A stretch of 41,097 nucleotides of DNA from Candidatus Aminicenantes bacterium (GCA_050124775.1 JASFEP010000003.1:1-41097); one strand, 5' to 3'. Counted from the first letter of the stretch, positions 17,690 through 38,487 are shown. A program made the numbers and translations. Notes: generated from the sequence alone by a model not told the origin.

Positions 17690-17913
17690 GATTTACCTCC
17701 TCTTATACTTCAACCCTTCACTATTCAATCGATTGACTCGATAAAAAGTCAGTGAAATGCGTGATCAAGCTTGATCTCAAAAGGCTTCTATTATACCGAA
17801 TTCAGACAGACAATAGGAAATTGAATTTTCTTCGAGGGAATCTCCCTCCTGGCATAGAAGCTTGAATGCCCTTTGGAAAATTGCTTGTCAGCCAATTTTT
17901 TGAATATTCCCGA

Positions 17914-20121: not shown

Positions 20122-20299
20122 GCCTTTTTAGCTCGGGAAATACAATTTCGATCGGAATAAATATTCCGGCCTCATTGATCGATCTTTGTAAGATACATCC
20201 AATGTTGTTCAGGATTTGTAGTATATACGCAGGCTGAATGATTAAGTTTGAGACGATAGGTCTCAGGTTTACTCCAAGAAAGGAACAGAATCCGCTATA

Positions 20300-21631: not shown

Positions 21632-21705
21632 AAACCTGTCCTCCTCTCCACTGTTAAACTAAAACTTTAGTATTTTGTTTGACAGACAGTTCGCGATTGC
21701 TCGCG

Positions 21706-22659
21706 CTATATCTTGACCTCTGCGATTTTGACTTTATTAAGGCTCATCTCACCCAGACCGTGATCATGGGCCATCTTGATCTGGAAGATGTCTTCGGGCT
21801 TTAGCCCCCACAGGGTGCAGCAATAAGCATCCATGGCCACCCGGTCCTGACCGGCCACGACTTTTTGCGGCTTTGTGATCTCGCCCGGGCCCATCGGACC
21901 GTTGGTGATGATAAACTCTGTGGCATCCACAACACACAGTGTGGGAAGAATCACGGTGTTGAGATCCGCGATGCATTGGTCAAGGTGTTTGATGTCATTG
22001 ATCTCTGTTTTCCACCCGGGTTTGTGGAAATTCTCTCTGTTATTTTTACGATGATTCAATCCCATCATATTTTTCATCGTTCCCGTGAATTTGTTTCCAG
22101 CGTGGTCCTTCGTGATGGGGATGTCGATGAACACATCATTGTTATAAAATTCCTTCATGATCATCGCCTCTTTGAGGGCCCGTCCCATCGGCACTTTGGC
22201 GGGCTTGAAGTTCGCCTCATCGCTTGCAACCAGTTTTAAGTTGGCTCCCTCTTCCTTCAACACAGCTCCGAGCCCGGTCTTTTCCCAATTTTCCATCGTT
22301 AGCCAGGACAGACAGTTGACCTCTTCGGCGCCTGCCTTTTTACACATCTGGACGATGGCACGGACGATCTCGGGTTTAGTGAACGTCCCGGGATGCCATC
22401 TCTGGACGTTGGGAAGAATGGCAACTCTTGCGCCCTTAGGAATGAAGTGGTCCATTCCCCCGAGAAGTTCGACAGCTTTCATGGTGTTCGCATAATAATC
22501 GGCCCCCTCAACGACAGCGATATCATGCGCTCCGTGGGCCATGGCAAGTGCTTTTGGGACATGAACGAAATGACCGAGGGCTGTCCCGCCCACCGCAGCA
22601 GTCAGACCATATTGGGCACTTTTTTTGATGAATTCTCTTCGTCCTATTTTATTCCCCAT
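21706..22659 (-). CDS. Tat-signal DUF362-domain protein
   Basis: GRREFIK; VAILPN, IDIPITKDH, TGTMKNMMG and DRVAMD motifs. Confidence 0.88.
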   Translation of the reverse strand: MGNKIGRREFIKKSAQYGLTAAVGGTALGHFVHVPKALAMAHGAHDIAVVEGADYYANTMKAVELLGGMDHFIPKGARVAILPNVQRWHPGTFTKPEIVRAIVQMCKKAGAEEVNCLSWLTMENWEKTGLGAVLKEEGANLKLVASDEANFKPAKVPMGRALKEAMIMKEFYNNDVFIDIPITKDHAGNKFTGTMKNMMGLNHRKNNRENFHKPGWKTEINDIKHLDQCIADLNTVILPTLCVVDATEFIITNGPMGPGEITKPQKVVAGQDRVAMDAYCCTLWGLKPEDIFQIKMAHDHGLGEMSLNKVKIAEVKI

Positions 22660-23657: not shown

Positions 23658-23901
23658 TCAATCAAATCCGATCGTAGGCATTTCGCGGTTGAAGGAAGGA
23701 CGTTGCTTTTTTATGTGAATCCCAAAACAGAGATGAGAAAACGAACGAGCCAAAAAATCAGAAATGCTATACAGGAGCGAGAATGTGTCCAAAAACTCCG
23801 GCACCTCCTCGCTAGAAGGTGAAAGAAGGATGGAGAGATGATAAAAACATGAAGAAAAATAAAATCAAAAGCAGAAGAATAACAAACATCTTTTTACTCA
23901 T
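23658..23901 (-). pseudogene. Small membrane-protein gene, apparently frameshifted (29-aa peptide as written; ~80 aa if one T is removed)
   Basis: ATG 23901 with AGGGGG RBS gives MSKKMFVILLLLILFFFMFLSSLHPSFTF* (stop 23812); the adjacent frame stays open to 23658; lies just downstream of a sigma54 promoter. Confidence 0.4.
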
Positions 23902-23985: not shown

Positions 23986-24001
23986 AGCAAAATTTATGCC
24001 A
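23986..24001 (-). promoter_or_regulatory. sigma54 (-24/-12) promoter
   Basis: TGGCATAAATTTTGCT on the minus strand (GG-N10-GC). Confidence 0.75.
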
Positions 24002-24061
24002 TATTCAAAAAACGGATATCCCCAAGACAATAAGACTCGAAGGGTAAAATTTGATCCCACC

Positions 24062-24078
24062 CGTAAACAATATTTACA
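24062..24078. promoter_or_regulatory. Putative enhancer (UAS) for a sigma54 activator
   Basis: CGTAAA-CAATA-TTTACA; the same palindrome occurs upstream of the other sigma54 promoters. Confidence 0.65.
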
Positions 24079-24108
24079 ATAATAGAATAAGAGGGAGCGT
24101 TAAAAGTA

Positions 24109-25701
24109 TCATCTGTCCTCCTTAAACTCCAAAACCTCAAGCTTCAGCTTCCCAATGATTTCAGACATGGCCTGGCCCATTTCCTGGAAGATTCCCTCAT
24201 CCAAAGCACTGTCACCCAATTTGATATGGGTGGCATCCGTGTAATATTCACCGCTTTTTTTATCAACGGCCAACCATTTGGCATCCAGTCCCACCCACTC
24301 GCCCACATAGACCTCGGGCCACATGTGATAGGCAAAAATCCCTTCCCCGTACATAACCCCGACTGCAGCCCTCGCCGGTATCCCCACAGAACGGCAGAGT
24401 GCAACCATCAATACGGTGTGCTCCGAACAGTCCCCCTCCCGATTTTCGAGGACCTCTTTGGCCGTGGCGAATCCCACGTCATAGTTGGGTTCTATCTGCT
24501 GATTCACCCATTCGGCGATCTTTTTCGATGCCGCCCAGGAATTCCGCTCACTCCCGATGATAGACCTGGCGATCTGAAGGATATCCGGGTCGTCGGACTG
24601 GCAGAATGTTGTGGGAGCCAAATACTCGACAAACTCCTCGCCATCGACAGGGAAAGGTATGGCATCCTTTTCGATAAACACCAAAGACTGCGTCTGAACA
24701 GTCGCGTAATCGTCCTTGACCTCCAAAAGCTTCTGACTGCGGCCTACAAAGGGAATACCTCTGACCTTCTCCAGAGAGATGCCGCTGACTCTAAAAGTGA
24801 CCATTTGAACCTCTTGGGGTCGGGGAAACTCAACATTCGAGTTTATCAGCACCGAAAAAGCGATATCCAAATTTTCCTCGGACAACTCCAACGCCTTATC
24901 CTTAGGCATGCGAATAGAAGTCGTATGCAGAAATCCTGCGTCACTGACGGATTTCCATATCTCGCCTTGCTCATCGATCCACTCATCCATGAGGATTGGG
25001 AAGACCTCGGTCATCTCGGTGCGGACATGCCAGAGAGACCTCTGCTCTCCCAACAGAAGCACGGATTCTTTCTCTATGACCTCGAAGGAAACATCGATAA
25101 GCGACCGGGTGAGGGGCTCCAGAATTTTGAAGGTGTATTCCCTTCCAGGATTCAGCCCATGCTCTTCGATGATCTTATCAAGAGGAACACCAAACTCGAA
25201 TTTTTCAGAGTAAGGCAATTCCTTGGAGAGCTTATCTCCGGAAAAAAATACGATTCTCTCGGGCTTGACCTCTGCCCGAATGACAGTTTCGGTCTGAGAG
25301 AGCTTTGTGCGGATGATCGTCTCCACGGGATTTCCCTCAGCGTCATACAAAGAATCTTGAGCCGTCGAGATCTCAACAGGATCGCTTCCCAAACGAGTGA
25401 CTTTCAGAAAAGACTCCTGGATACTCTTTGTGTATGTCTTCCCATTTTGGACGACATCGAACTCCCTGCTGTGGCTGTAACCGACCTTCACACCTTCCAT
25501 GTATACGCCCATCCAGATTTCTTTGACAGTACCGGTCTCATCCGCTCGAACTTTTGTCTCAAGAGACTCTGTTGACAGCACGGCCGAACAGGGTATTCCT
25601 GACTGCTCTGTATGTATGTTTCCCATAAAAACGACAATGGTCAGCAACACTCCCATTAAGGGGAGTGTATGTCTTTGAAAAGGGAGCTTTGCCATACTCA
25701 T
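24109..25701 (-). CDS. Exported transglutaminase-like (Cys-His-Asp) protein
   Basis: EGDCSEHTVLMVALCRSVGIPAR, HMWPEVY and WVGLDA motifs; N-terminal hydrophobic segment. Confidence 0.88.
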   Translation of the reverse strand: MSMAKLPFQRHTLPLMGVLLTIVVFMGNIHTEQSGIPCSAVLSTESLETKVRADETGTVKEIWMGVYMEGVKVGYSHSREFDVVQNGKTYTKSIQESFLKVTRLGSDPVEISTAQDSLYDAEGNPVETIIRTKLSQTETVIRAEVKPERIVFFSGDKLSKELPYSEKFEFGVPLDKIIEEHGLNPGREYTFKILEPLTRSLIDVSFEVIEKESVLLLGEQRSLWHVRTEMTEVFPILMDEWIDEQGEIWKSVSDAGFLHTTSIRMPKDKALELSEENLDIAFSVLINSNVEFPRPQEVQMVTFRVSGISLEKVRGIPFVGRSQKLLEVKDDYATVQTQSLVFIEKDAIPFPVDGEEFVEYLAPTTFCQSDDPDILQIARSIIGSERNSWAASKKIAEWVNQQIEPNYDVGFATAKEVLENREGDCSEHTVLMVALCRSVGIPARAAVGVMYGEGIFAYHMWPEVYVGEWVGLDAKWLAVDKKSGEYYTDATHIKLGDSALDEGIFQEMGQAMSEIIGKLKLEVLEFKEDR

Positions 25702-25942
25702 CTCCTATAGACGATCTTTCGTATCTATCCGTCCTCTCAACGTTACTATACCAAAAACTGGTCGAAATTGATCCATCCGAATCATCTGGGCCCAATTTTT
25801 CTTAAGGAAAAACGTTGGCTACCATGTTTCGTTCGATATCATCGCAATCACCCGGTGCGCACCCAGGGGAAAGCCAACAGAAATTCTGGGGGATGAAATG
25901 AGGGAGTCGGATCTCCTTGGCAAAAATGCGCGGATATTCGAC

Positions 25943-28900
25943 TCAGAATGTCAGTCGCAAACTGACTTTCACGACCCTGCTACCGTAGGCAGCAGTGATA
26001 TCGCCATAATTGCTATACCTTTTGAACACAGGATTTTCAGGATCCCTATAATCCAAATAGCCGCCTGGGTCTGAATCAATCTTATACCCGCTCCAGCCGA
26101 AAGCATTTAAAATATCGATATATCCTCCAAGAAGCAATGTATCCGAAATCCGGAATCTCTTTTCGATCCTGAGATCCAGAGTCGTCAGCGGCGCTGTACG
26201 CCTTGTTCCCACCTCTTCTGTGATCACTTGGTAACCCTGTCCCGGGAATAGATATCGCTTATCCTCTGGAATATAGACCCACACGCTCCTGGCCCATGGA
26301 GCACCTGACAGATGACTGAGGTAACCGCTGAGAATAAAATCCTGGGGGAGGATGATCGTGCTCTGGATCTTGATGTTCAGCGGCCTGTCGTAATCCAACC
26401 TTCCTTCAGGAAATATGAGGGAATTGGGTGTATCGTAATTCTGGGAGGCGCCGCCCGTCTCAGAGTATCGCCCTCCGATATTCCCCCATGCTTTGCTCCA
26501 AACCAGAGATGCGAGAATCTGCCATCTGTGGGACATTCTTTTATTGAGGACAAACTGAAGAGCGGCATATTTTCGGAAGCCCACATCCAGATTTGTGTAA
26601 AACCAGTGTCTGCCCCCTGGCGAAGTGGCGAGCTCTGCATAACAGAATGACGTCTTGTCGTCATCCGTACCGAACAATCCATCGTCTCCGGGATCGTTGA
26701 ACGTGAACTCCTCCCAGTAAGGACTGTCAGACCTGTAGCCCTTCCATGCTTGACTTTTGCCGAGTCCATAGTCGTTGACATCCTCGAAAATATTCGACTT
26801 ATTTTTGTAGATCAGCGTGATCCCAGCACTGAAACTCCTCGCCAACTCCCTCTCGATTCCCAGAGTGAACTCATCGGTGTATGGGGCCGATGACTCGGAA
26901 TCCAGCACACTTTCCAGGTCGTAAACGTAAGGGCTATCCGGCAGATCATAGATCTCGTAGCCGTCATCTGCATCTGGCAATTTGTTATAGTTTTCGTCGT
27001 ACCAGTACCAGGCCCCAACCCGAGGATAGAGGGGATTCAACGCGTTAAAGTACTGGACCATGAGATACTCGTTATACCTCGACCAGGATCCCCTGATAGA
27101 GGTTTTTCCATCTCCGAAAATATCGTATGAGAAGCCGATGCGCGGCGAAAAATGTGTCCAAGTCAGAATATTGCGGCCCTCGAATTCATAGGAGCCGTAA
27201 GGAGATTGCTCTCCCAGTCCTGGCAAAATTTGAAGGATTCCGTAGGGATCGGCGGTGGCCTCTTTGCTTTGCTTCGGAAAACGGCCTGTGCTGGTGTCGA
27301 AACGCAGGCCGAGATTTAGTGTCAGCCGCTCGTTGAGGGAGAGAGTATCCTGAAAAAAAGCGCCAAATCTTTTTTTAGAGTCTTCCTCGATGGAGGACGA
27401 GATAGTGGGCCCGCAAGTATAGATGGTAACAAATCCCCTGTTCGGTGAGAGAGATGTGGGGTAGGAATAAATATTTCCGTCAAAATAATCGAATCGCACG
27501 GGATTTCCTCTCCACCAATCCCATTTACTGGCGACCCATTCATATTCCAAGCCAACCTTGATCTCGTGGTTTGTTCCGAAAAGATCGTCCGCAAAAAGCG
27601 TAACCATCATAGATGGATTGAGTCTTTTTCGCGTATATTCTTCCTGAAACCTGGAATTATTCCGGTAGATTCCCCAATAACGGTCCCAGAATTGAGGGGC
27701 ATCCTCCAGGGCGTAATCACTGAAGGGCAAAGGAAAATAACGATAATTGTAACCTATCCTGATGTCCATGAAGTAATTCTGGCTCGTGACCCAATTCACC
27801 TGAAAGCTCAGGGTGTGACCCTTCTCTCCATCCCAACGCGATGTCGCAGTTCTATCCGTATAACTCGAAAGCCGATGCGTGTAGTAATCTTCGGTGATGT
27901 TCGCCAGATTATACATGCCCATAAGACGGATCTCGGGAGTGAGCTGGAAGGTCAATTTTCCAAAAATATTTGTCTCCTCATGAGGGCCTTGCTCCTGTGT
28001 GTACACCCGTTCACGGCTCATGATGGTGTCGTCCCAAGACACGAGATTGAAATCTTGTGTCCACGTGTAATAACGGCCGTTCGCAAAAAACCAGATGCGG
28101 TCTCTTGCAATGGGGCCGCCCAAGTACATCGAAATATCGCTCCAGGAGCTTCGCCCCATCGGCTTCTCCATTCCAATGGACTTGAGATCTTCCTGGCTTA
28201 TCAGGCTCTCGGTCATTGTGTCATTGAAATATTCTGCTGTGAAACCCCCATGGTAATCATTGCCCCCTGATTTTGTCACAATGTTCACGAATCCTCCGTC
28301 AGCCAATCCCACATCCGCCGGATGACCGTAAAGGCCAAATTCCACCTCTTCGTAAACATCGATATTGATATTCGTCATAGGATACATGACGACAGGGTCG
28401 TTGATAGTGACACCATCCACAGAATATTGGTTGCCCCGGACAGTCCCCCCCGAAATAAAAGAAGTTCTCCTGTAATCCACATTTTCAGACACAGCTCCGG
28501 GGATGGAGTTGAGAACATCATACAGGTCTCGCGACATAGGAATGTGATAAATAAAATCTCTGGCATAGTTGACCGACGTCTTCGACGATCTGACATCGAC
28601 AACAGGTGAAAAACCGACCACAGTGACATCCTCTTCCAAACCTCCCATTTCCATAACGATGGATACAGACAATGTTTTGCCGACATTCACGCGCAATCCG
28701 CTCCGGGTAACGCTTTTAAAGCCCAGCACCTCAAAAGTTAGCTCATAATCATCACCGGGGGGTAACGTCGGAAAGCGGAAAATACCCGTTTCAGTTGTGA
28801 CGAACCTCAAAGGGTAGGGCAAAGCTTTCCCCTCTATTTTGACCGTAACACCGGGAAGAGGTCGGTCTTCCACATCGACCACTTTTCCGATTACGGAGCC

Positions 28901-28984
28901 ATCCAACCTCTGTTGCCCAAAACCTGATGAGAGGCAGACGAAAAAAACACAAGCGAAACTGACAGCCAGATAAGATCGTCTCAT
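25943..28984 (-). CDS. TonB-dependent receptor, Oar-like, with N-terminal carboxypeptidase-regulatory-like domain
   Basis: Signal peptide; GKVVD...PLPGVTV, NQYSVDGV, VNIVTKSGGN, FQD..LTLNLGLRFD, SPRIGFSYD; terminal ...LRLTF. Confidence 0.92.
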   Translation of the reverse strand: MRRSYLAVSFACVFFVCLSSGFGQQRLDGSVIGKVVDVEDRPLPGVTVKIEGKALPYPLRFVTTETGIFRFPTLPPGDDYELTFEVLGFKSVTRSGLRVNVGKTLSVSIVMEMGGLEEDVTVVGFSPVVDVRSSKTSVNYARDFIYHIPMSRDLYDVLNSIPGAVSENVDYRRTSFISGGTVRGNQYSVDGVTINDPVVMYPMTNINIDVYEEVEFGLYGHPADVGLADGGFVNIVTKSGGNDYHGGFTAEYFNDTMTESLISQEDLKSIGMEKPMGRSSWSDISMYLGGPIARDRIWFFANGRYYTWTQDFNLVSWDDTIMSRERVYTQEQGPHEETNIFGKLTFQLTPEIRLMGMYNLANITEDYYTHRLSSYTDRTATSRWDGEKGHTLSFQVNWVTSQNYFMDIRIGYNYRYFPLPFSDYALEDAPQFWDRYWGIYRNNSRFQEEYTRKRLNPSMMVTLFADDLFGTNHEIKVGLEYEWVASKWDWWRGNPVRFDYFDGNIYSYPTSLSPNRGFVTIYTCGPTISSSIEEDSKKRFGAFFQDTLSLNERLTLNLGLRFDTSTGRFPKQSKEATADPYGILQILPGLGEQSPYGSYEFEGRNILTWTHFSPRIGFSYDIFGDGKTSIRGSWSRYNEYLMVQYFNALNPLYPRVGAWYWYDENYNKLPDADDGYEIYDLPDSPYVYDLESVLDSESSAPYTDEFTLGIERELARSFSAGITLIYKNKSNIFEDVNDYGLGKSQAWKGYRSDSPYWEEFTFNDPGDDGLFGTDDDKTSFCYAELATSPGGRHWFYTNLDVGFRKYAALQFVLNKRMSHRWQILASLVWSKAWGNIGGRYSETGGASQNYDTPNSLIFPEGRLDYDRPLNIKIQSTIILPQDFILSGYLSHLSGAPWARSVWVYIPEDKRYLFPGQGYQVITEEVGTRRTAPLTTLDLRIEKRFRISDTLLLGGYIDILNAFGWSGYKIDSDPGGYLDYRDPENPVFKRYSNYGDITAAYGSRVVKVSLRLTF

Positions 28985-28996
28985 CGCTAATCTCCC

Positions 28997-29035
28997 AAAA
29001 AAAAAGCTGTCGGGTTCACTGGAACACCCGACAGC
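28997..29035 (-). terminator. Intrinsic terminator directly upstream of the TonB receptor RBS
   Basis: GCTGTCGGGT-N10-ACCCGACAGC (10-bp perfect stem), then T9, then GGGAG and ATG 28984. Confidence 0.85.
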
Positions 29036-29210
29036 CTCTGTATTTTCAGTCAGCTGCTTAATCTGAATGATTCGTAAAATATCCTGCCAAATCCCTATGC
29101 CAAAAGCTTTCCCTTCTCTATTGGAAGACTCTTTGACCCTCTGGGTGAGCTGATCACAAAGCTTTTCGGCTCATCTATTGGCAGTATGTTTCACCCTTTG
29201 GTATTTCAAT
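28997..29210 (-). ncRNA. Candidate structured sRNA or attenuator leader (~215 nt), family not recognised
   Basis: Bounded by a sigma54 promoter and a terminator; 17-bp helix 29178-29194/29074-29090 encloses two hairpins; no long ORF. Confidence 0.55.
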
Positions 29211-29220
29211 TTTTTGGAGC

Positions 29221-29236
29221 AGCAAAAATCGTACCA
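29221..29236 (-). promoter_or_regulatory. sigma54 promoter
   Basis: TGGTACGATTTTTGCT; IHF-like TAACAATAACTTA at 29254-29266 (minus); UAS-like TGTAAA-ATTTG-TTTCAA at 29322-29338. Confidence 0.8.
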
Positions 29237-29495
29237 AATAAGGCGAAAAAATGTAAGTTATTGTTATAAAACAGGTTAGAAACTTTCCCTAGAGAGAAAA
29301 GAACCCGGATTATCCAAAAAATGTAAAATTTGTTTCAAAAAATTGAATTGATTCCTAAAAAATAGGCTGGATCCGCATAGAAATAGGGCAAGCTTTTGCA
29401 AAGTCGCCGAACCGTCGAAAAAAAAGGGAGATAAAACGGACCCCATGGAGACATTCATGCAGATGGGCAAAAAACCGAAAGGACAATCAAAGGAT

Positions 29496-29852
29496 TTAAA
29501 AGGGTTTTTTATCGAAGCGGATATTGTACCTCTTCAGCTTTTCGTTCAGCGTTGTGTATTTGATACCCAGGAATTTTGCTGCGCTTTTTTGACATCCCTT
29601 GCACTGCGAGAGGGCACGGATCAAAATACTCTTTTCCACACTGCCGATGAGTTCTTTGAAAGGCACTCTTTGCCGGATACAAAAATACTCAATGAAAAGC
29701 TCGAAGACCTCCTTACGAAAGGTTCTTTCTTTCCATTCATCGAGATACTCAGGGCTTATTTTTTCGACAGATTCCGTCTTAGAGTATGCCCTGCCGAGCG
29801 GCGCTCCAAGAGGGGGAAAAGTTTGGTCCGTCTGTAAATTTTCCGTAGCCAT
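29496..29852 (-). CDS. Stand-alone Fis-family HTH (HTH_8) protein
   Basis: VEKSILIRALSQCKGCQKSAAKFLGIKYTTLNEKLKRY; GGAG RBS. Confidence 0.85.
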   Translation of the reverse strand: MATENLQTDQTFPPLGAPLGRAYSKTESVEKISPEYLDEWKERTFRKEVFELFIEYFCIRQRVPFKELIGSVEKSILIRALSQCKGCQKSAAKFLGIKYTTLNEKLKRYNIRFDKKPF

Positions 29853-29865
29853 CGTATCTCTCCTT

Positions 29866-30057
29866 TTATCCCGTAAATTTAATTTTTTTCTTCACCTCTT
29901 CGGCCAACATGGGGAGACCATCTTGAATCTTGAGCCGATCGATCTCACCGAACCTTATGGATTCGCAGTATTTGATGAAGGAATACCAGGCGGGATGAAT
30001 GTATGTCATTCCGCTCGTCTTAATGCCTTCATCTAATCTGCGTATTCCATTCGGCAT
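29866..30057 (-). CDS. 63-aa conserved-looking small protein (YezD/DUF2292-like pattern)
   Basis: SIRFGEIDRLKIQDGLPMLAEEVKKKIKF; tightly packed between the REC and Fis genes. Confidence 0.7.
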   Translation of the reverse strand: MPNGIRRLDEGIKTSGMTYIHPAWYSFIKYCESIRFGEIDRLKIQDGLPMLAEEVKKKIKFTG

Positions 30058-30068
30058 ATCGTCTTTCC

Positions 30069-30464
30069 CTACACTCTCTTTTCATTACCGTGTTTCCCAT
30101 TCAAAAGATATTCAATGGAATGGTTGAGTGCATTGAGGTCCAAAGGCTTTACGAAAAAGTGGCCGATCGAAAGACGGTTCAATTCATCCATATCGATCAT
30201 ATCGGGAAAACCCGATATCAATATCGCCTCACCTTTGTATCCGGCTTCCCTGAACTTGGCGATCAATTCCAGCCCGCTTATATCGGGTAATTTCAAATCC
30301 GCGATGATAAGATCCACATTGGTTTTTTTGAACCGGTGCAAAGCTTCTTTCGGATCCTTTGCCAGATAGACTCTGTAATTATCATGGAGGATCATGAAGA
30401 AGGTCTTTCTGATGCTGTCGTCATCGTCTACGATCACAATTTTTTTCTCTTGCATTTTTGACAT
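30069..30464 (-). CDS. Single-domain response regulator (REC)
   Basis: IVIVDDD, LIIADLKLPDISGLE, ISG and FVKP motifs; start 30464 or 30497. Confidence 0.9.
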   Translation of the reverse strand: MSKMQEKKIVIVDDDDSIRKTFFMILHDNYRVYLAKDPKEALHRFKKTNVDLIIADLKLPDISGLELIAKFREAGYKGEAILISGFPDMIDMDELNRLSIGHFFVKPLDLNALNHSIEYLLNGKHGNEKRV

Positions 30465-30508
30465 CCTGAGTGAATTCTTCTCTCCTCCTTCAAACATTGA
30501 CTATTGTC

Positions 30509-30524
30509 TGCAGATTTCGTGCCA
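30509..30524 (-). promoter_or_regulatory. sigma54 promoter
   Basis: TGGCACGAAATCTGCA on the minus strand. Confidence 0.8.
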
Positions 30525-30590
30525 TATGGACAATTTTTTGGACTTTCTAGGGGAAAAGTATCGAGGCGGGAGGAATCCGCCAAAAAGCCA

Positions 30591-30627
30591 GGACAAATTT
30601 ATTTACATGGGGTAAAATGCGTTTACA
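30591..30627. promoter_or_regulatory. Tandem putative enhancer sites
   Basis: GGACAA-ATTTA-TTTACA (30591-30607) and GGTAAA-ATGCG-TTTACA (30611-30627), 20 bp apart. Confidence 0.65.
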
Positions 30628-30662
30628 TACCCGAAGAATATACTCTTCGGCGAAATTAACTC

Positions 30663-31997
30663 CTAGATTTTTAGATCGTATTCTTTGATCTTTTTATCGA
30701 GTGTCGGCCGGCTGATCTGCAGTACTCTACAGGTTTTGGTCTTGTTCCCCTTCATTTCTGTGAGGACATGCTGGATATAGTTCATCTCTACATCTTTAAT
30801 AGGGACAAGTTCTCTTGGAAGGGCTTTTTTCTCACTTCCCTCGAGAGGCAAGTTCTCTTCGAGAATGACGTCCCCCTTCGCCAAAATGACGGCACGGGTC
30901 AAGGCATTCTCCAGCTCTCGAACATTCCCTCGCCATGTATGCTCCTTTAATATTTTCATCACCGGAGGAGGAACTTTCCTGACATTTTTTCGGAGCTGAC
31001 TGTTGATCTTCTCCAGCAGATAAGCGACAAGCTCCGGGATGTCCTCTTTTCGCTCACGCAAAGGAGGGAGATGAATCACCACAACCTTGAGGCGGTAGTA
31101 GAGGTCCTCCCGGAAGGTTCCTTTTTCGATCAATGCCCTCAGGTCCTGGTTTGTAGCCGCGATGATCCTTGCCTCTGTTTTGAGGATTTTTTCTCCCCCG
31201 ACCTTCATAAAATCCCGTGTTTCGATCACCCGCAGCAGCTTCGACTGAAGGCTCGGTGAAACATCCCCGACCTCATCGAGAAAAAGAGTCCCCTTGCCAG
31301 CGATCTCGAACTTTCCCTTTGTCTCACATACGGCATCGGTGAAGGCCCCCTTCACGTGCCCGAAGAGCTCGCTCTCCAACAGGGTATCCGTGATGGCGGA
31401 ACAGTTGATCACGATGAAAGGCTCGCGGTTATAAGGGCTGTTGTAATGGATGGCCTTGGCGACCAATTCCTTTCCCGTACCGCTTTCTCCCTGGATAAGC
31501 ACATTCGTACGGGTCGGAGCCACAGAACCTATCAATTTGAAGATTTCCCTCATCTGGGGAGAACGGCCGATGATATTATCGATGGTGTATTCTTTCTGTT
31601 TTTCTTCGACGAGATAGCTGAGCTTATCTTCCAGATTTTGAACTTGGAAAGCTTTGGCGACGGTAAGATCCAGCTCGACATGGTCCAGAGGCTTCACCAG
31701 GTACTCGAAAGCCCCCAATTTGATGGCATCCACCGTAGTTTTCATATCGTCGTAGGCCGTCATGATAATGATCGAAGCGTTTTTATTTTTTTCTTTGATC
31801 AATCTCAACGCTTCCAGACCATCCATGTCGGGCAGCCGGATGTCGAGTATAACGAGATCTGGATTACACAGATCATACTTTTCAAGACCTTCCTTTCCAT
31901 CCTCAGCCATCAGGACTTCGAACTTATCCTTGGCGAGATGGGAGGAGAGAGTTTTTCTGATTAAAGGATCATCATCAATGATTAAGATCGATTTCAT
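30663..31997 (-). CDS. NtrC/AtoC-family sigma54-dependent response regulator (REC-AAA+-Fis HTH)
   Basis: LIIDDD, LDIRLPD; GESGTGKE, ESELFGHVKGAFTDA, LFLDEVG, FREDLYYRL, WRGNVRELEN; C-terminal HTH; ATGA overlap with the kinase gene. Confidence 0.95.
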   Translation of the reverse strand: MKSILIIDDDPLIRKTLSSHLAKDKFEVLMAEDGKEGLEKYDLCNPDLVILDIRLPDMDGLEALRLIKEKNKNASIIIMTAYDDMKTTVDAIKLGAFEYLVKPLDHVELDLTVAKAFQVQNLEDKLSYLVEEKQKEYTIDNIIGRSPQMREIFKLIGSVAPTRTNVLIQGESGTGKELVAKAIHYNSPYNREPFIVINCSAITDTLLESELFGHVKGAFTDAVCETKGKFEIAGKGTLFLDEVGDVSPSLQSKLLRVIETRDFMKVGGEKILKTEARIIAATNQDLRALIEKGTFREDLYYRLKVVVIHLPPLRERKEDIPELVAYLLEKINSQLRKNVRKVPPPVMKILKEHTWRGNVRELENALTRAVILAKGDVILEENLPLEGSEKKALPRELVPIKDVEMNYIQHVLTEMKGNKTKTCRVLQISRPTLDKKIKEYDLKI

Positions 31998-33463
31998 TGG
32001 ACTTCCCCACAAGGAATAAGGATCTCGAAACACGCTCCTTTTCCTTCTTTGTTTATGATCCGGATGGATCCATTGTGCTGTTCCACGATTTTCTTGGCAT
32101 TGGCCAGGCCCAGCCCTATGCCGGCCGACTTTGTCGTGTAAAACGGTTCAAAAATATTGTCCCACTCGGTTTCAGCAATGCCTTTCCCGTTATCGGAAAT
32201 TTCTATCCTGATCTCTTTACCCGCCTCATTTTCCCTGAGTGAGAGGATGATTTCGATCTCACCTCCCTCTTCCAACTCTTCGTAGGCATTACGGAGGATG
32301 TTGACGATCACCAATCGCATTTTATCGCCATCCACATACACGGCCGGCAACCCCGACTGATAGTCCTTCTTGACTTGAATATTTTTCAGATCCAACGAGT
32401 CGGATACCATCTTGAGCGAACTGTCTATGACCTGATCCATGGGAAAGTCACAGAAATTTAGCTCGGAAACCCTGGTGAAGTTAAGCAGTTCCTTGATGAA
32501 ATTCTCGATATGCTCGATCCCCTCCTGAGTGATATCCAGATGTCCTTTTTCGATCTCCCCCCAACATTCGCTCTCGGCGACCTTTTGGACATTGAGTTTG
32601 ACCGATGTCAAAGGATTCCTGATTTCGTGAGCGATACTGGCCGATAAGCGCCCGATGGACGCCAGTTTCTCTGCATGGACCAGCTTTTTACTGGCTTCCT
32701 CCATCCGTTTCTTGGTAAGAAGAAGCTGTTCGCTCATCACATTAAAGCTTTGCGCAAGCCCACCGAGCTCATCGCGGGATGAAAGGTCGATCCTGTGAGA
32801 AAAATCACCCTTGGAGATCCTCACTGTCCCGTCCACCAATTTTTTCAGCGACGTGGTGATGCCCCTGGATAGCAGAATCGACCCGATAATGCCGACACAA
32901 AGTCCGAGACCTGCGATCAACACCAGCTTGATATGCGTATCTCTGATCTCTGCCCGTGCCTCCTCCATAGAAAGCCCGATCTTGACAGAACCCCACCTGC
33001 GAGGAGAGCCTTCGACATAGATGGGCGCTTCGATCTCCAGCACTCGCAAGATATTACCGATTTCTGGAGCCCTGAGCTCCCTTCTTTCAGAGAAGTAATC
33101 TCCTTCAAGTTCTCTTTCGGCGAAGTTGCTATTCTGGTAGATCTCTTTATAGGTTTTGATAAATTCATTCCCGGCAAAAGGAGAGTTGTTGGCATCATAA
33201 AACACGATGTAGATCAATTTTTCGTTGATCTGTTTTTCAATATTTTCCTCGGCACCTGCAACATCCCTGAAGACCACAAACTCGTCATAATTCAACTGGA
33301 TCAGATACTGTGCTTCCAGAAAACCCCTGCTGATTTGCTCTGAATGGATAGCACTCACTTCCCGTTTTTCGATGACGAAGAAGATCAGTCCTACGAGTAC
33401 AAAAAGCAAGAGAATGACGGCAAGAATAAATTTTGTCCGCAAGCTCATCAGCAATGGCCTCAT
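31994..33463 (-). CDS. Membrane sensor histidine kinase (2 TM, HAMP, HisKA, HATPase)
   Basis: DELGGLAQSFN (HAMP), AHEIRNPL, NILRNA, DNGKGI, FEPFYTTK and GLGL motifs. Confidence 0.95.
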   Translation of the reverse strand: MRPLLMSLRTKFILAVILLLFVLVGLIFFVIEKREVSAIHSEQISRGFLEAQYLIQLNYDEFVVFRDVAGAEENIEKQINEKLIYIVFYDANNSPFAGNEFIKTYKEIYQNSNFAERELEGDYFSERRELRAPEIGNILRVLEIEAPIYVEGSPRRWGSVKIGLSMEEARAEIRDTHIKLVLIAGLGLCVGIIGSILLSRGITTSLKKLVDGTVRISKGDFSHRIDLSSRDELGGLAQSFNVMSEQLLLTKKRMEEASKKLVHAEKLASIGRLSASIAHEIRNPLTSVKLNVQKVAESECWGEIEKGHLDITQEGIEHIENFIKELLNFTRVSELNFCDFPMDQVIDSSLKMVSDSLDLKNIQVKKDYQSGLPAVYVDGDKMRLVIVNILRNAYEELEEGGEIEIILSLRENEAGKEIRIEISDNGKGIAETEWDNIFEPFYTTKSAGIGLGLANAKKIVEQHNGSIRIINKEGKGACFEILIPCGEVQ

Positions 33464-33493
33464 TACTTTATACGTAGATAAATAATAATGTTT

Positions 33494-35092
33494 TTATTTA
33501 TCAAGCCAAATCTTTTTAGCGTCTAAGTAGTAAAATCCCAGCGAGGGATACTCCACTCCGCGAACATAGGGTTGAATGGCCACTCTGTTCTGGTGAGAAA
33601 ACAAAGGAATGGCCGGGACATCCTCGAACAACACCTCTTCGATCTTGTGGAAAAGGCCGATCCTTTTTTTCCAACTCCTCTCGACTTCTGCCATCTGCAA
33701 AAGATCATCGAGCTTGGGATTGGTGTATCCAAACACATTAAAAAGGGATTTGGAATGAAAAAGAGGGCGGATCATATCCTCAGGATCAGGAAAGCTCATG
33801 TTCCTCTCGACGAAAATCATGTAGGGGGCCTTCGTTTTATGTAATTCTTTGGGGGACTCATAGAAATTCAGACGGGAGTCGATGTTGAGATTCCTGAGTT
33901 GATCCCGCAATTCTCTATAAATTTTATGTTTTTCGTCTGTTCGCGGTAATTTAAAATATACGGTAACCCGAGGGAACCGATCATTCTCAGAAAAACCCTC
34001 TCTCTCCAGCATTTCCTTGGCTTTCACCAAATTAGAGGGTTCTCCTTCATGGGGTGGAAAAAATCCCGGCAAACTGGAAGGAATATAGTTATTCGTGGCA
34101 GTACGGAGATATTTTATATCTTTGGCCGCTTCGACGATCGACTGTTTATCAAAGCCCAAAGAAAGAGCCTTCCGCACCGACGCCCGATTCAGAGGAGGAA
34201 TCCTGCAGCTTAATCCCAGAAAATAATGTGTCATCGGTCCGTCCTCGTAGAGCTGAAACTCCGAATCGAGCAATCTTCTGGACAGGATGGGGATAGCATC
34301 GATCTCTTCGTTGTAGAAGTGATCGATGGTGAACAGGGAGCAGAACTCGATCCCGTCCAGATAGGGCGGGCCTGCGAAGTATTCGGGATTGCGTTTGAGA
34401 TGAATGCCCGCGATCTCGAGCCTTGTCGTCCTTACCCAAAAATCGAACATGAAGGGACCTGTCCCCGAAGGCCTGCGGAAAAAATCTCTTCCTTCTGCGG
34501 TGGCTTTTTCGCGAGGAAGAATCTTGCAAAAATTCATGCTCATCAAATAGAGGGCTGAAACAAAGGGTTTAGTGAGCTTCATCTTGAAGGTAAAGTCATC
34601 AACGACACTGTATCCTCTGACATGGTCGGATCTCCCCTCTCGAAAATCCGCTGCACCTTCCACCCGGTTGACGAAGAATTGATAATAAGGGGAATTCGAT
34701 TCCTTGTCGAGGATCCGCTCCAGAGAATATTTGACGTCGGCGGCATCAAGCACTTCTCCATGATGGAATTTAACCCCCTTCCGCAAATAAAATGTGTAGA
34801 CCTTTTTGTCCGAAGATATCTCCCAGTATTCGGCAAGAGCCGGCTGGATGTGAAGGTTCTTGTCCAATCCCACCAAGCCGTCATAGATCTGTTCGGAAAG
34901 AAAAATGAAGGAATTCGGGCTTATCGGGTCGAGCTCCGTCCTGTAGACATCAGTGAATGATTTGAGCCGGAAAATCCCTCCGTAGTTGGGTTGAATATCC
35001 TTGCGGATGCCCGCAGATCTGGAGAGAAGGGAAGGTCCGCCCAACAGGAATAAAAGGATCACTGCAAGGAGCCACGTCAACTTTCTAGACAT
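33494..35092 (-). CDS. Family 5 (peptide/nickel-type) ABC substrate-binding protein, orphan
   Basis: IYDGLV...PALAEYWEIS, YTFYLRKGVKFH, GTGPF, VRKALS and PAIPL motifs; signal peptide; start 35092 or 35104. Confidence 0.9.
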   Translation of the reverse strand: MSRKLTWLLAVILLFLLGGPSLLSRSAGIRKDIQPNYGGIFRLKSFTDVYRTELDPISPNSFIFLSEQIYDGLVGLDKNLHIQPALAEYWEISSDKKVYTFYLRKGVKFHHGEVLDAADVKYSLERILDKESNSPYYQFFVNRVEGAADFREGRSDHVRGYSVVDDFTFKMKLTKPFVSALYLMSMNFCKILPREKATAEGRDFFRRPSGTGPFMFDFWVRTTRLEIAGIHLKRNPEYFAGPPYLDGIEFCSLFTIDHFYNEEIDAIPILSRRLLDSEFQLYEDGPMTHYFLGLSCRIPPLNRASVRKALSLGFDKQSIVEAAKDIKYLRTATNNYIPSSLPGFFPPHEGEPSNLVKAKEMLEREGFSENDRFPRVTVYFKLPRTDEKHKIYRELRDQLRNLNIDSRLNFYESPKELHKTKAPYMIFVERNMSFPDPEDMIRPLFHSKSLFNVFGYTNPKLDDLLQMAEVERSWKKRIGLFHKIEEVLFEDVPAIPLFSHQNRVAIQPYVRGVEYPSLGFYYLDAKKIWLDK

Positions 35093-35141
35093 CTTGATTT
35101 CCAATTATGATAAAAGAACACACGTCTTAAGGCAAATAAAA

Positions 35142-35157
35142 GGCAAGTTTTATGCCA
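35142..35157 (-). promoter_or_regulatory. sigma54 promoter
   Basis: TGGCATAAAACTTGCC; IHF-like TATAAATAATTTA at 35186-35198. Confidence 0.75.
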
Positions 35158-35230
35158 TTTTCAACATGACTAGTAATTTCTTTAATATAAATAATTTAGA
35201 GAGATAATGGAAGACTCGTAGAACATTTTT

Positions 35231-35247
35231 TGTAAACATTTTTTACA
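35231..35247. promoter_or_regulatory. Putative enhancer (perfect palindrome)
   Basis: TGTAAA-CATTT-TTTACA. Confidence 0.7.
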
Positions 35248-35300: not shown

Positions 35301-36551
35301 TTATGAGCCTCGAGAGACCTCTATGACTCGAGTCAGAACACGCATGATGTTTTTTCCCCAGATCTTCCGTATATCCTCTTCACTGTATCCGCGCCTAAGG
35401 AGTTCTTCCGTGATGTTGGGCATCTCGCTGACATCATTACACCCTTCGACCCCCCCGCCGCCATCAAAATCCGTGCCGATACCTACATGATCCACACCGA
35501 TGAGCGCGACGACATGATCGATATGGTCGACCAACTCCTGTAAAGTGGTTGTCTCCCCGGGATATTTTTCATAGATTGCTTGGTACTCGGCATAGAGCTT
35601 GGCTCTTTCGGCTTCATCGCGGATGTCTCGTCTGGATCCATACTTCTCTCTGAGTGCATTGAGGGCGGCATCCCGCTCAGGATTGGGAGGGTGCTCTTTT
35701 ATAAAACTGGAAACGAAACAGATCTGGATGACACCGCCATTCTTGGCAAGAGCTTTCAGTTGATCATCCGTTAAGTTCCTGGGATGGTCGCAGAGATCTC
35801 TCACGCTCGAATGAGAAGCGATAATCGGGGCCTTTGTCGTTTCAATGATATCAAAGAAGGACTTTTCAGATGCGTGGGAGATATCGATCATGATACCCAA
35901 GCGGTTGCATTCGGTCACAACCTCTTTTCCGAAATCGGATAAGCCTTTATCTTCCGGGTCTCCCGAATCCGTGGATGAATCGCAGATGTCATTATCCCTT
36001 GAATGGCAAAAAGTGATATAGCGGACACCTCTATCATAGTATTTCTCGATCAGAGTCAGGTCCTTTCCAATCGGGTACCCGTTTTCCATCCCGATAAAGG
36101 CGGCCCGCTTGCCCTCTTTTTCGAACCTGTAGGCATCCTCAGGAGATGTCGCTAGAGCCACAAGCTCAGGATAGTCTGCGCACATCTTGTGGATCGCATC
36201 GAGCACGCGGAAAGCACGCTCTTTAGCGTTTTTATATCCTTCAGGAGTCCGTTCTCCCTGCCCCACAAACACAGCAAAGAATTCCGCGTCTAAACCGCCT
36301 TCTGCCATACGGGGGAGGTCGATCTTGGAGCCTCTTCTGCCTGTAGATTCATGCCGCTCTCCGATGTCCCAATCCCCGCTCAGCAGGCGAGAGGGCGTAT
36401 CCGCATGCGTATCCACCGTTAAGACTTTATCGTGAAGCTCGCTGACCCGAGCGGCAAAATCGCCATCCTTCTGCTGGGATGAACAGGCCATCATCCCATA
36501 GAACAAAAACAATAAGACGCCTCCCAAGACGATTGCGTTGTTTTTTTTCAT
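35301..36551 (-). CDS. M19 membrane dipeptidase, probable lipoprotein
   Basis: VDTHAD, GMENG, DISH, IASHS, RNLTD and GTDFDG motifs; MMAC lipobox-like signal. Confidence 0.93.
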   Translation of the reverse strand: MKKNNAIVLGGVLLFLFYGMMACSSQQKDGDFAARVSELHDKVLTVDTHADTPSRLLSGDWDIGERHESTGRRGSKIDLPRMAEGGLDAEFFAVFVGQGERTPEGYKNAKERAFRVLDAIHKMCADYPELVALATSPEDAYRFEKEGKRAAFIGMENGYPIGKDLTLIEKYYDRGVRYITFCHSRDNDICDSSTDSGDPEDKGLSDFGKEVVTECNRLGIMIDISHASEKSFFDIIETTKAPIIASHSSVRDLCDHPRNLTDDQLKALAKNGGVIQICFVSSFIKEHPPNPERDAALNALREKYGSRRDIRDEAERAKLYAEYQAIYEKYPGETTTLQELVDHIDHVVALIGVDHVGIGTDFDGGGGVEGCNDVSEMPNITEELLRRGYSEEDIRKIWGKNIMRVLTRVIEVSRGS

Positions 36552-36610
36552 GTGGGCTCCTCCCTCAGATGGCTCTCTCTATGAAGTGTTAAACGGCAGG
36601 GGCGGTCAAA

Positions 36611-37132
36611 TTACCACTTGCCATCCATCTGGAATTCTGCGCTTCCAAGCCAGAATCCTGAACGGGACACAGAATCATACTGTGCCTGGAGCAGATCGTA
36701 GTGGAATTTCTCTTCTTCGCTGATCTCCCGGAAGATCTTTTTAGCAACCGGATCGTCTGCGTCCGCCGAAGCCTGGGAAAAAAACCTGATCGCGTTTTCC
36801 TCGAGCTCCATCCCTACCCGAAGAGCCTCGACCTCTCCCTTGGCATCTTCTCTTTTCATGTTCTCTTTGAGCTTTGTGATGAGCGGCGCTTCGCCTTCCT
36901 CGACCTCATCCCTGATGTACTGCTTCCAATCGGTGCCGCCGAGGATCTTCGTGAACATCTTGCCGAAGGTTTCCAGGTGTTTCACCTCTTCATTAGCGAG
37001 GAAATAGAACATCTTTTTCCCCGTTTCGTGGCTGGTGACATCCGCTGCATGATTAAAGAACTTCCGTCCGTTTATCTCTAATTTGATGGCCTCTACGATG
37101 GCATTTTCAACCTGCTCGCTTATTTGTTTCAT
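36611..37132 (-). CDS. Ferritin-like / rubrerythrin-family di-iron protein (no rubredoxin domain)
   Basis: Two E...EExxH repeats (LE..EEVKH; LE..EEKFH); GAGGAG RBS. Confidence 0.9.
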   Translation of the reverse strand: MKQISEQVENAIVEAIKLEINGRKFFNHAADVTSHETGKKMFYFLANEEVKHLETFGKMFTKILGGTDWKQYIRDEVEEGEAPLITKLKENMKREDAKGEVEALRVGMELEENAIRFFSQASADADDPVAKKIFREISEEEKFHYDLLQAQYDSVSRSGFWLGSAEFQMDGKW

Positions 37133-37252
37133 GGGTTCTCTCCTCTATAATATGCGCGTGAGACACAACCTGACTTTTCGATCTCGACTCACGCGAACTG
37201 CCCAGTATAGATAATTATTAAAGGCAGCGCAACTCTTAATTTCCCATCGTGG

Positions 37253-37478
37253 GCATTTCCGAAACCGTGAAGGCAAGTACGCGTTATGCGTTATTGAGTG
37301 GTCCAATTGTGTGGTGGAGAAAACCGTGAGAAGAGCTTGACGGGCATGGTGCATCTCCTTTAGGAGATGTGAGGAAAGCTCGAATCCGAGCGAAGTTTCC
37401 TCGGTGGGGAAACTGAGCGTGTTTTCGCACCACCAATTGGGGCACACGGACATTCATTCGTCACGGTTTTGGAAATGC
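37253..37478. repeat. 226-nt fold-back element with 18-bp terminal inverted repeats (MITE-like or structured RNA)
   Basis: GCATTTCCGAAACCGTGA (37253-37270) / TCACGGTTTTGGAAATGC (37461-37478), 1 mismatch; nested inner stem and internal hairpins. Confidence 0.65.
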
Positions 37479-38381
37479 TTACTTTCCCATCTTTTTCCAG
37501 GCTTCGATGAACTCGACGGCACTCGTGACCATGGCGTTGACTGTTTTTTCACCGCGTTCCCGTGTGGCTCTTTTGGGATCACCCGTGGACCAAATCCCGT
37601 TGCTCGAGAGCTCATGGCTGGCGCCCCCTTTTTTGGTTGCTTCGGGCACACCCTGGACCGTGCTCAAAAGGGCATAGAGATCGGGATTTTTCTGGCCCCC
37701 ATCGATAATCTCTTGAATTTTCTGGGACGCTTTGAACTCAGGCTTCTCGGCCAGTTCCATCTTGACCAGCTCGGGTTTGAGGTAGAGCATGATCGACGTT
37801 TCATTGATCCCCGCATGTGTGTCGTAAACGCCTGGGATATCGTCTGAATATCTCTGGAACGAAGCCCCTGCGCCGATGGCCACCGCACAGGCCCCGGTCG
37901 TGTGGTTTATCCTGTGAATGACCTTGCTTTCCACGATGTGATTCCCGCCGTGATAGTTGAAGAACATAAAACGGCGGAACCCGTATTTCATCAGCATTTC
38001 GGCCGTCTCGAAAAGCACCTGCTCCATAGTCTCCGGCTTCAAGCTCAGCGACCCGGCAAATCCGGAATGGTAGACACTGTATCCAGAGAGCAACACGGGA
38101 GCGACCACAACCCCGGTCTTAGCCGAGATCATCTTCGACATGCCAACAGCCTCATAAAAATCGGTGCCCAGAGGCATGTGGGGACCGTGTTGTTCCGTAC
38201 TCCCGAGAGGAATGATCACCATATCGCTGGTCTTCAAATATTCGGCAACATCCGTCCAGCTCATCTCCTGGAGGACAAGCGCTTTTCCCTCCTGCTGTGC
38301 AAACACCAAACATCCCAGTAAGAGAACGAAGACCGCCCCAGAAAAAAGCCGAACGCTTGTGAGGATTGTGTTTTTGATCAT
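37479..38381 (-). CDS. Creatininase-family amidohydrolase with signal peptide
   Basis: EMSWTDV, PLGSTEQHGPHMPLGTD, NYHGGN, HAGINETS and GDP motifs; signal peptide ending VFA. Confidence 0.9.
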   Translation of the reverse strand: MIKNTILTSVRLFSGAVFVLLLGCLVFAQQEGKALVLQEMSWTDVAEYLKTSDMVIIPLGSTEQHGPHMPLGTDFYEAVGMSKMISAKTGVVVAPVLLSGYSVYHSGFAGSLSLKPETMEQVLFETAEMLMKYGFRRFMFFNYHGGNHIVESKVIHRINHTTGACAVAIGAGASFQRYSDDIPGVYDTHAGINETSIMLYLKPELVKMELAEKPEFKASQKIQEIIDGGQKNPDLYALLSTVQGVPEATKKGGASHELSSNGIWSTGDPKRATRERGEKTVNAMVTSAVEFIEAWKKMGK

Positions 38382-38487
38382 ATTGTCCCTCCTTCCTCTA
38401 TTGTTTGACTCCTGAAAAAATCATTCTAATCCTTTACCCCTCCCATTTCAATAAAAGAAGGTGTGTGTTATAAAAAGGAAACGGAAA

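Follow-up and report, generated by a model that had tools for sequence, protein, structure and literature searches.

The two-component systems NtrB/NtrC and AtoS/AtoC, whose regulators are group I bacterial enhancer-binding proteins, combine a receiver (REC) domain, an AAA+ domain and an HTH_8 domain in the regulator with a 17-bp dyad about 80-100 bp upstream of a -24/-12 promoter, and with autoregulation. In arsenite sensing by AioX-AioS-AioR, a periplasmic binding protein that has no transporter acts as co-sensor, and is encoded together with the kinase and the sigma-54 regulator. TyrR, another enhancer-binding protein, with a helix-turn-helix (HTH) at its C-terminus, has the box TGTAAA-N6-TTTACA. 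Haft et al. 2006 (PMC1569441) describe a 17-nt motif that ends in TTTACA, is sometimes repeated and lies on average 62.8 nt before the sigma-54 promoters of proteobacterial PEP-CTERM genes, and predict it to be the site of the NtrC-like protein PrsR. Here we analyze a locus in a 41,097-nt stretch of DNA (the window, meaning the whole stretch) of Candidatus Aminicenantes bacterium, whose genome (G000) comprises 4.38 Mb in 498 contigs and is 84% complete. The locus encodes an orphan periplasmic solute-binding protein (SBP), a membrane histidine kinase and an NtrC-type response regulator, and shows four predicted sigma-54 promoters, each preceded by a TGTAAA-N5-TTTACA-like dyad. We propose, with a probability of about 0.72, that a sigma-54 two-component regulon found clade-wide in the Aminicenantes has its home here, with the signal path and targets given below.

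The strict promoter pattern TGGYAY-N5-YTGC (TGGYAYNNNNNYTGC) has four matches in the window, all on the minus strand: P1 at 23987-24001 (TGGCATAAATTTTGC), P2 at 29222-29236 (TGGTACGATTTTTGC), P3 at 30510-30524 (TGGCACGAAATCTGC) and P4 at 35143-35157 (TGGCATAAAACTTGC), with predicted transcription starts at about 23975, 29210, 30498 and 35131, respectively. Shuffled sequences contained 0.27 matches on average, and none of 100 reached four. All four lie upstream of an open reading frame (ORF) on the same strand; the general form of such promoters is TGGCAC-N5-TTGCW, with GG and GC at 10-bp spacing. The 17-bp dyad pattern TGTAAA-N5-TTTACA, allowing up to two mismatches, matched six times against 1.13 expected, a number reached by 0 of 100 shuffles. 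Four of these dyads are predicted upstream activating sites: TGTAAA-N5-TTTACG at 24062-24078 for P1 (one mismatch), the imperfect TTGAAA-N5-TTTACA at 29322-29338 for P2 (two mismatches), TGTAAA-N5-TTTACC at 30611-30627 for P3 (one mismatch) and a perfect copy at 35231-35247 for P4, the last supported by both motif and conservation. By their coordinates, these dyads start 61, 86, 87, and 74 bp from the edge of their promoters, respectively. The other two dyads, at 25476 and 28471 with two mismatches each, lie inside the two long ORFs. The four minus-strand promoters, and a palindrome 61-87 bp upstream of every one of them, had been reported at these places by a first-pass annotation of the window, which was correct on both points.

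That annotation also listed a tandem copy of the P3 dyad. This second site is present at 30591-30607, with its centre 20 bp from that of the main dyad; however, it is partial, with only the TGTAAA half well matched and three mismatches overall. An extra TGTAAA next to the P3 dyad recurs in the P3 sequences of relatives. The sites for integration host factor (IHF) that had been placed between promoter and enhancer stay at chance level: the P2 and P4 intervals contain one 1-mismatch match each to the IHF-like WATCAANNNNTTR, a match of this kind turns up in 17 and 29%, respectively, of the composition-matched shuffles of these intervals, and no such block is conserved in relatives. The genome has two HU/IHF-family genes, and DNA bending at the promoters is possible, though unsupported. 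An AT-rich block of the type TTATTCATATTAAA was seen about midway between dyad and promoter in the P4 intervals of many relatives of the same family (about 35175-35195 in the window); it is not conserved across the order and might be a bending site.

Across the whole genome, the strict promoter pattern matched 130 times. All three perfect dyads of the genome lie within 200 bp upstream of a strict promoter, as do eight of the 24 dyads with one mismatch but only two of the 182 with two mismatches. Looked at from the promoters, 11 of the 130 have a dyad with at most one mismatch 20-160 bp upstream when the spacer is N5, and 0 of 130 when it is 2-4 or 6-9; 59 permuted half-sites used as a control gave a mean of 0.05 promoters and a maximum of one. 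In this genome, the dyad is concentrated upstream of sigma-54 promoters. Most of the 1-mismatch dyads located away from strict promoters (14 of 16) have no sigma-54-like promoter within 160 bp, and nine of the 16 are inside open frames of more than 140 codons; these off-promoter dyads are taken as chance matches. Nine more strict-promoter-plus-dyad units were found on nine other contigs, and two further dyads (C75 and C87) are accompanied by near-consensus promoters. An origin of the 13 sites in a repeat element was rejected, since their likeness is confined to short stretches, the longest being 32 nt at 78%; matches among them at E ≤0.015 all fall on dyad or promoter with the exception of one 13-nt match (C159/C380, E 0.015). 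Separately, three strict promoters (C31:954, C219:6322 and C322:38) show a 1-mismatch dyad 81-104 bp downstream and not upstream. In C322 this dyad is inside a small conserved ORF of about 78 amino acids and the upstream region is cut by the contig end; homologs of this ORF in G022 and G015 (L147 and L156) do carry the composite site upstream.

Conservation was studied in 80 related loci, mostly from metagenome-assembled genomes (MAGs) of Candidatus Aminicenantes. Of 40 relatives of the same order, 35 have a clear ortholog of the regulator, with 72-94% identity; paralogs are about 40-48% identical. By tblastn over the 80 loci, identities to the window are 73-94% for the regulator, 38-82% for the binding protein and 46-87% for the kinase, so that the binding protein and the kinase diverge faster than the regulator. 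The order SBP-kinase-regulator-receiver is kept throughout the related loci, and 63 of the 80, those with near-full-length SBP and kinase genes, show SBP, kinase and regulator in this order. The region upstream of the SBP gene is present in 63 loci and has a perfect dyad in 53 and a dyad with one mismatch in seven, so the dyad predicted in the window is kept in 60 of 63; in 57 of the 63 a strict promoter lies 40-160 bp downstream of it, mostly (50 loci) at 87-91 bp. Among 61 unique sequences of the P4 region, only TGTAAA, TTTACA and TGGCATAAAa.TTGC are conserved, whereas the N5 spacer, the flanks and the interval between dyad and promoter drift freely. A receiver gene lies downstream of the activator gene in 68 of the 80 loci, and the gap between the two contains a P3 dyad with at most two mismatches in 44 of these 68, followed by a strict promoter in 29. 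The spacer control in the genome, this conservation, and the co-occurrence with the activator ortholog described next mark the dyad as under selection and functional.

A composite pattern of dyad and promoter, TGTAAA-N5-TTTAC-N59-89-TGGYAY-N5-YTGC, was searched in 41 relatives' genomes and gave 63 matches in 31 of them, while the reversed-pattern control gave none. A class-wide sample of 61 genomes, including that of the window, was then sorted by the presence of the regulator ortholog (E ≤1e-150). It is present in 22 genomes, which represent the window's order and one further family, and was not found in 38 genomes of five other families, nor in G020 of the window's own family. The composite is present in 12 of the 22 genomes with the ortholog and in two of the 39 without it, figures that describe an association and not a test statistic, as the related genomes are not independent.

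The regulator is encoded at 30663-31997 (minus strand, as are all the genes and sites of the locus listed here, from the M19 dipeptidase gene to a 29-aa ORF in order of transcription, although no strand is assigned to the dyads). It has a REC domain (Response_reg, 1.7e-30), an AAA+ sigma-54 interaction domain (Sigma54_activat, 5.2e-67) and a C-terminal HTH_8 domain (1.3e-11), and carries the phospho-acceptor D52 and the Walker A motif GESGTGK. The sigma-54 contact loop reads GAFTDA, not the canonical GAFTGA, and the same is found after E[LI]FGH in 79 of the 80 relatives' loci; GAFTDA is also seen in two other activators of this genome (C34 and C92). The sigma factor itself is encoded by rpoN, marked by a single 204-bit match to Sigma54_DBD on contig C35. 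The recognition helix, I[ST]RPTLDKKI[KR], is shared by all 11 proteins examined, the window regulator and 10 orthologs, and the genome's other 11 enhancer-binding proteins all have a different helix. Conservation, phyletic co-occurrence and this invariant helix make the local NtrC-type protein the best candidate to bind the dyad and to activate its own operon and the REC operon. The first-pass annotation had proposed the same binder, as autoactivator of the SBP-kinase-regulator operon and driver of the REC operon, and both roles seem probable from the dyads and promoters kept at P4 and P3 in relatives.

P3 precedes an operon of three genes that encode a single-domain receiver (30069-30464), a 63-aa ORF without family match (29866-30057) and a 118-aa Fis-like protein with a Pfam HTH_8 match (29496-29852). 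With transcription predicted to start at about 30498, the longest receiver ORF, which begins at 30497, is a worse fit than one beginning at ATG 30464, which follows a GGAGGAG. The two small genes are less widespread, being detected by tblastn in 13 (63-aa ORF) and 18 (HTH_8 protein) of the 80 loci, and a transglutaminase-like gene often follows the REC operon in relatives. A single metatranscriptome run, in which 7% of the sampled words were present and whose contigs cannot show start sites, contained one 412-nt contig that covers 30010-30420, inside the REC gene, with no differences; the remaining hits of the run match the conserved AAA+ region at 90-95% and stem from other organisms, and the uncovered parts of the locus carry no information.

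P2 lies about 226 nt ahead of the gene for a 1013-aa outer-membrane beta-barrel (25943-28984), which is TonB-dependent-receptor-like and has a Pfam CarboxypepD_reg domain, followed by a 530-aa transglutaminase-like protein of cysteine-protease fold (24109-25701, Pfam). The P2 transcript (28985-29212, minus strand) folds more stably than shuffles (z = -3.5). A terminator-like element at 28997-29035, composed of a hairpin (29006-29035) and a U9 run (28997-29005), would end a transcript of about 215 nt, and this end corresponds to a conserved 14-pair hairpin with a run of U8-9 directly before the ribosome-binding site of the outer-membrane protein gene. Besides the window, the hairpin was found in L002, L022, L024, and L125. 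P2 is identical in L022 and L024, which also share the same imperfect form of the dyad, and is present too in L002 and L008; L002 and L022 are the same contig of G002, to which L125 also belongs, and L008 (G001) corresponds to L024. Relative to L022 and L024, the leader in the window has an insertion of about 130 nt. The three sequences offer no compensatory changes in the hairpin. No Rfam family matched anywhere in the window at the gathering threshold, and with E relaxed to 1 the P2 leader still had no match. The P2 transcript may be either a sigma-54-driven small RNA or a leader attenuator.

P1 precedes a 29-aa hydrophobic ORF with its own ribosome-binding site (MSKKMFVILLLLILFFFMFLSSLHPSFTF, 23812-23901). 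P1 and this ORF are common only to the window and L021, a close relative, in which the changes in the ORF are conservative. The first-pass annotation had included both the RNA/TonB unit of P2 and the small membrane gene of P1 in the regulon; their promoter-dyad units are genuine, but restricted to the closest relatives examined, the P2 unit to the window and two other species among the loci examined. The gene content that it gave for the locus is confirmed by Pfam domain matches and ORF translation. The flanks of the locus (15368-22659 and 35301-39897) form a peptide and amino-acid catabolism neighborhood, in which no gene has a sigma-54 promoter match: it contains genes for an M28 peptidase, a class-V aminotransferase, a DUF362 protein, an ARMT1-like phosphatase, the M19 dipeptidase (35301-36551), a rubrerythrin-like protein, a creatininase-family amidohydrolase and an amino-acid permease.

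The nine additional units of the genome precede diverse genes, chiefly for exported peptidases and envelope proteins. They encode a secreted M1 peptidase (C189); an S10 carboxypeptidase-like protein (C325); a 312-aa unknown protein, an extracytoplasmic function (ECF) sigma factor and a beta-lactamase-fold/DUF3471 protein (C125); GWxTD and TPR proteins (C15); an ankyrin/DUF3471 protein and a PD40 protein (C462); an ADOP/MacB-type permease and an ankyrin/metallo-beta-lactamase protein (C159); and exported or membrane proteins without recognisable function (C380, C281, and C1). In relatives, composite sites outside the home locus precede M1 peptidases (G012, G015, G022, and G024), M16 peptidases (G015 and G031), resistance-nodulation-division (RND) and ATP-binding cassette (ABC) systems, an ECF sigma factor with a zinc-finger/TonB_C protein, a Tat-signal (twin-arginine translocation) aldo-keto reductase and a pyridoxal phosphate (PLP) enzyme of Cys/Met metabolism. 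For M1 peptidases, the site is found in five genera, the window's own and four others. A near-identical composite is also present in five genomes of the same genus, and it precedes an ORF of 868-870 amino acids in the two loci examined.

On the input side, the binding protein (33494-35092) has a signal peptide and belongs to the SBP_bac_5 family (Pfam, 7.7e-63); its likely start is ATG 35092, although the longest ORF begins at TTG 35104. It is an orphan, as no ABC permease or ATPase gene is adjacent and its neighbors in the window are the dipeptidase and the rubrerythrin-like gene. The kinase (31994-33463) consists of a transmembrane segment, a periplasmic domain of about 145 residues, a second transmembrane segment, and HAMP, HisKA and HATPase domains. 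The complex of the mature binding protein with kinase residues 32-182 was predicted with each partner as a 44-row alignment, and scored 0.66 against 0.00 for the best of three controls. This mark is reached by 116 of 157 solved complexes and two of 215 mismatched pairs, counts that hold only roughly with custom alignments. Three prediction runs share at least 90% of contacts, with a predicted local distance difference test (pLDDT) value of at least 83 for the partner. The predicted docking surface of the kinase comprises residues 59-74, 91, and 150-157, and the interface includes the invariant or near-invariant columns Y93, I96, and S477 of the binding protein and D67, S153, and W157 of the kinase. 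The model supports a docked state in which the orphan binding protein sits on the kinase's periplasmic domain, although its score might stem from likeness to solved structures; we are not aware of any structure of a kinase in complex with a family-5 binding protein, but no search aimed at one was made.

The ligand is most likely an oligopeptide, judging from the nearest solved relatives of the binding protein, which are di- and oligopeptide-binding proteins. Members of family 5 also bind nickel, heme, opines, and oligosaccharides, and NikA, HbpA, CntA, and AgaA are among the matches of this protein. The same circuit could therefore respond to a metal, heme, opine, or oligosaccharide, with the peptidase targets serving envelope remodelling or stress, and the ECF sigma factor, the RND and MacB-type permeases and the TPR/GWxTD surface proteins among the targets would suit such a role. 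Nevertheless, the top solved relatives bind peptides, both the neighborhood and the targets are rich in peptidases, and Aminicenantes are reported to specialise in protein degradation (PMC6469976). We consider a signal other than peptide rather unlikely, though it is the alternative that survives best.

The dyad might also be bound by another of the about 13 sigma-54 activators of the genome, with the local regulator merely one of its targets. One candidate is a paralog: in four loci from three genera, a kinase and an activator paralog lie directly downstream of, and convergent with, a dyad-controlled M1 peptidase gene (L160-L163, that is G022:C2, G024:C15, G003:C331, and G002:C115). The convergent kinase is large (936-951 amino acids in L160 and L161); in L162 and L163 the contig ends within its gene or before it. 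However, the recognition helix of this paralog, VKPTTLNEMIKRL, differs from that of the local regulator, and its own operon has neither dyad nor strict promoter in the two loci that reach upstream (L160 and L161), whereas the best-conserved dyads flank the operon of the local regulator in 60 of 63 loci and the composite tracks the local ortholog (12/22 vs. 2/39 genomes). Binding by another activator is thus improbable. Still less credible is recognition of the dyad by the small Fis-like protein, for example as a bending factor or competitor. Its HTH_8 domain and the position of its gene behind a dyad-controlled promoter would fit, but tblastn detected it in only 18 of the 80 loci, against a dyad kept in 60 of 63; its helix, IKYTTLNEKLKRY, is unlike the invariant one of the regulator; and a protein without AAA+ domain cannot activate sigma-54. 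The helix of the Fis-like protein (KYTTLNEKLKRY) is nearer to that of the peptidase-adjacent paralog (KPTTLNEMIKRL) than to that of the local regulator, and the Fis-like protein might compete at the sites of this paralog. Finally, a self-contained regulon of four local promoters aided by IHF, as the first-pass annotation described it, has next to nothing left in its favor despite all four window promoters lying within 11.3 kb beside the regulator gene, given the nine strict and two near-consensus units elsewhere in the genome, the sites of relatives far from the locus, and IHF-like matches that are neither conserved nor above chance. That annotation is therefore partly supported: right on the promoter-enhancer units, probably right on the regulator, and wrong on self-containment and on IHF.

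We therefore return to the local regulator at the centre of a wider regulon. In the proposed mechanism, which follows what is known of these protein families, the orphan binding protein of the peptide/nickel family would bind its ligand, most likely an oligopeptide, and dock on the periplasmic domain of the HAMP histidine kinase, which would then phosphorylate the regulator at D52. The regulator would bind the 17-bp dyad as a dimer through its C-terminal HTH, the dyad starting about 77-103 bp upstream of the -24 TGG; its AAA+ ring would assemble, loop to the sigma-54 holoenzyme at TGGCAY-N5-TTGC and open the promoter. From P4 it would activate its own operon, a positive autoregulation, and from P3 that of the single-domain receiver, a likely phosphate sink or connector, together with the 63-aa and Fis-like proteins. 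In this genus, P2 would add the short RNA or leader, the outer-membrane barrel and the transglutaminase-like protein, and P1 the 29-aa membrane peptide. Beyond the locus, at least nine more promoters of the genome would respond.

Several observations weigh against this proposal. The assignment of the regulator to the dyad comes from linkage and co-occurrence among related genomes, which are not independent of one another; two of the 39 ortholog-free genomes still hold one composite match, and the strict pattern is absent from 10 of the 22 that have the ortholog. In its sigma-54 contact loop, the regulator has GAFTDA where GAFTGA is canonical. RNA data are limited to the one contig within the REC gene, which could be DNA carry-over. 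As for the signal, all NCBIfam equivalog scores of the binding protein are far below cut-off, and in a family with such varied ligands a peptide is a guess from the nearest relatives. Many target genes have no recognisable function, and as the genome is split into 498 contigs and only 84% complete, some operons are truncated and the list of targets is incomplete. What the sequence of this uncultured MAG and its relatives shows are the motifs, with their statistics, conservation and co-occurrence with the regulator; from these we infer binding, activation, ligand, and the role of the receiver.

The Aminicenantes are abundant uncultured bacteria of sediments and wetlands. We tentatively suggest, while leaning somewhat against it, that the module is a master switch for extracellular protein foraging in the Aminicenantales and a sister family. 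If so, an OppA-like protein that lost its transporter would report peptides to a kinase, and one activator of unusual conservation would induce the genes for secreted peptidases of families M1, M16, and S10, for an uptake barrel, for efflux and permease systems and for an ECF sigma factor; the co-induced receiver, the Fis-like protein and the sigma-54-driven short RNA would give feedback. The succession TGTAAA-N5-TTTACA then TGGCAY-N5-TTGC would allow this proteolytic regulon to be read from sediment and wetland metagenomes and metatranscriptomes, and the 17-bp box may share a recognition code with the proteobacterial PEP-CTERM box. Literature searches found no paper joining Aminicenantes and sigma-54, and a wider search had none among the matches listed. 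For the half-sites in combination with sigma-54 terms, the matches listed included two that are relevant by title, the PEP-CTERM paper and one on the TyrR-like GcsR. The analysis yields a testable regulatory code, with a named regulator, a predicted 17-bp site, a promoter class and a first list of exported-peptidase targets, as well as a predicted example of a peptide-type binding protein as kinase co-sensor, and the composite motif can be used to annotate co-regulated genes in MAGs.

Compared with the described systems, the dyad strikingly resembles the PrsR box in length, 3' hexamer, and spacing, as far as the text description of that box goes. The identities of PrsR and PrsK were rejected for the local proteins: the regulator scores 394.1 against a cut-off of 502.6 (TIGR02915), only the seventh of the genome's 13 activators, none of which passes, and the kinase 92.2 against 300 (TIGR02916). 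Exosortase EpsH (TIGR02602) and PEP-CTERM (TIGR02595) gave no match in the 84%-complete genome, although the PEP-CTERM control was positive in no control genome; in two Acidobacteriota genomes with a true PrsR, a TTTACA-N45-75-promoter composite was not found. With TyrR, the half-sites of the box are identical, but the spacer is 5 instead of 6, and N6 gives 0 of 130 promoters at up to one mismatch; on the TyrR model the regulator reaches 229.8, with the cut-off at 576, and its N-terminus is a REC domain instead of ACT/PAS domains.

The closest likeness in architecture is with NtrB/NtrC and AtoS/AtoC, with which the locus shares the REC-AAA+-HTH_8 arrangement, a 17-bp dyad upstream of a -24/-12 promoter and predicted autoregulation. 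Among NCBIfam models, the regulator scores best with AtoC and the kinase with AtoS, but every equivalog cut-off is missed; the regulator reaches 480.8 against 714 for AtoC (NF008469) and 425.9 against 558.6 for NtrC (TIGR01818). The locus differs from NtrC systems in its half-sites, in the pairing of an orphan periplasmic binding protein with the kinase, and in the loop GAFTDA. In this pairing it is similar to AioX-AioS-AioR, where a binding protein, a kinase, and a sigma-54 regulator are also encoded together, a likeness in gene organisation; here, however, the binding protein is of the family-5 peptide/nickel type, and the predicted targets are peptidases and envelope proteins, not arsenite oxidase. 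The design of sensor kinase, NtrC-type activator, upstream dyad, and autoregulation is thus a textbook one, and its example in this uncultured lineage is new.

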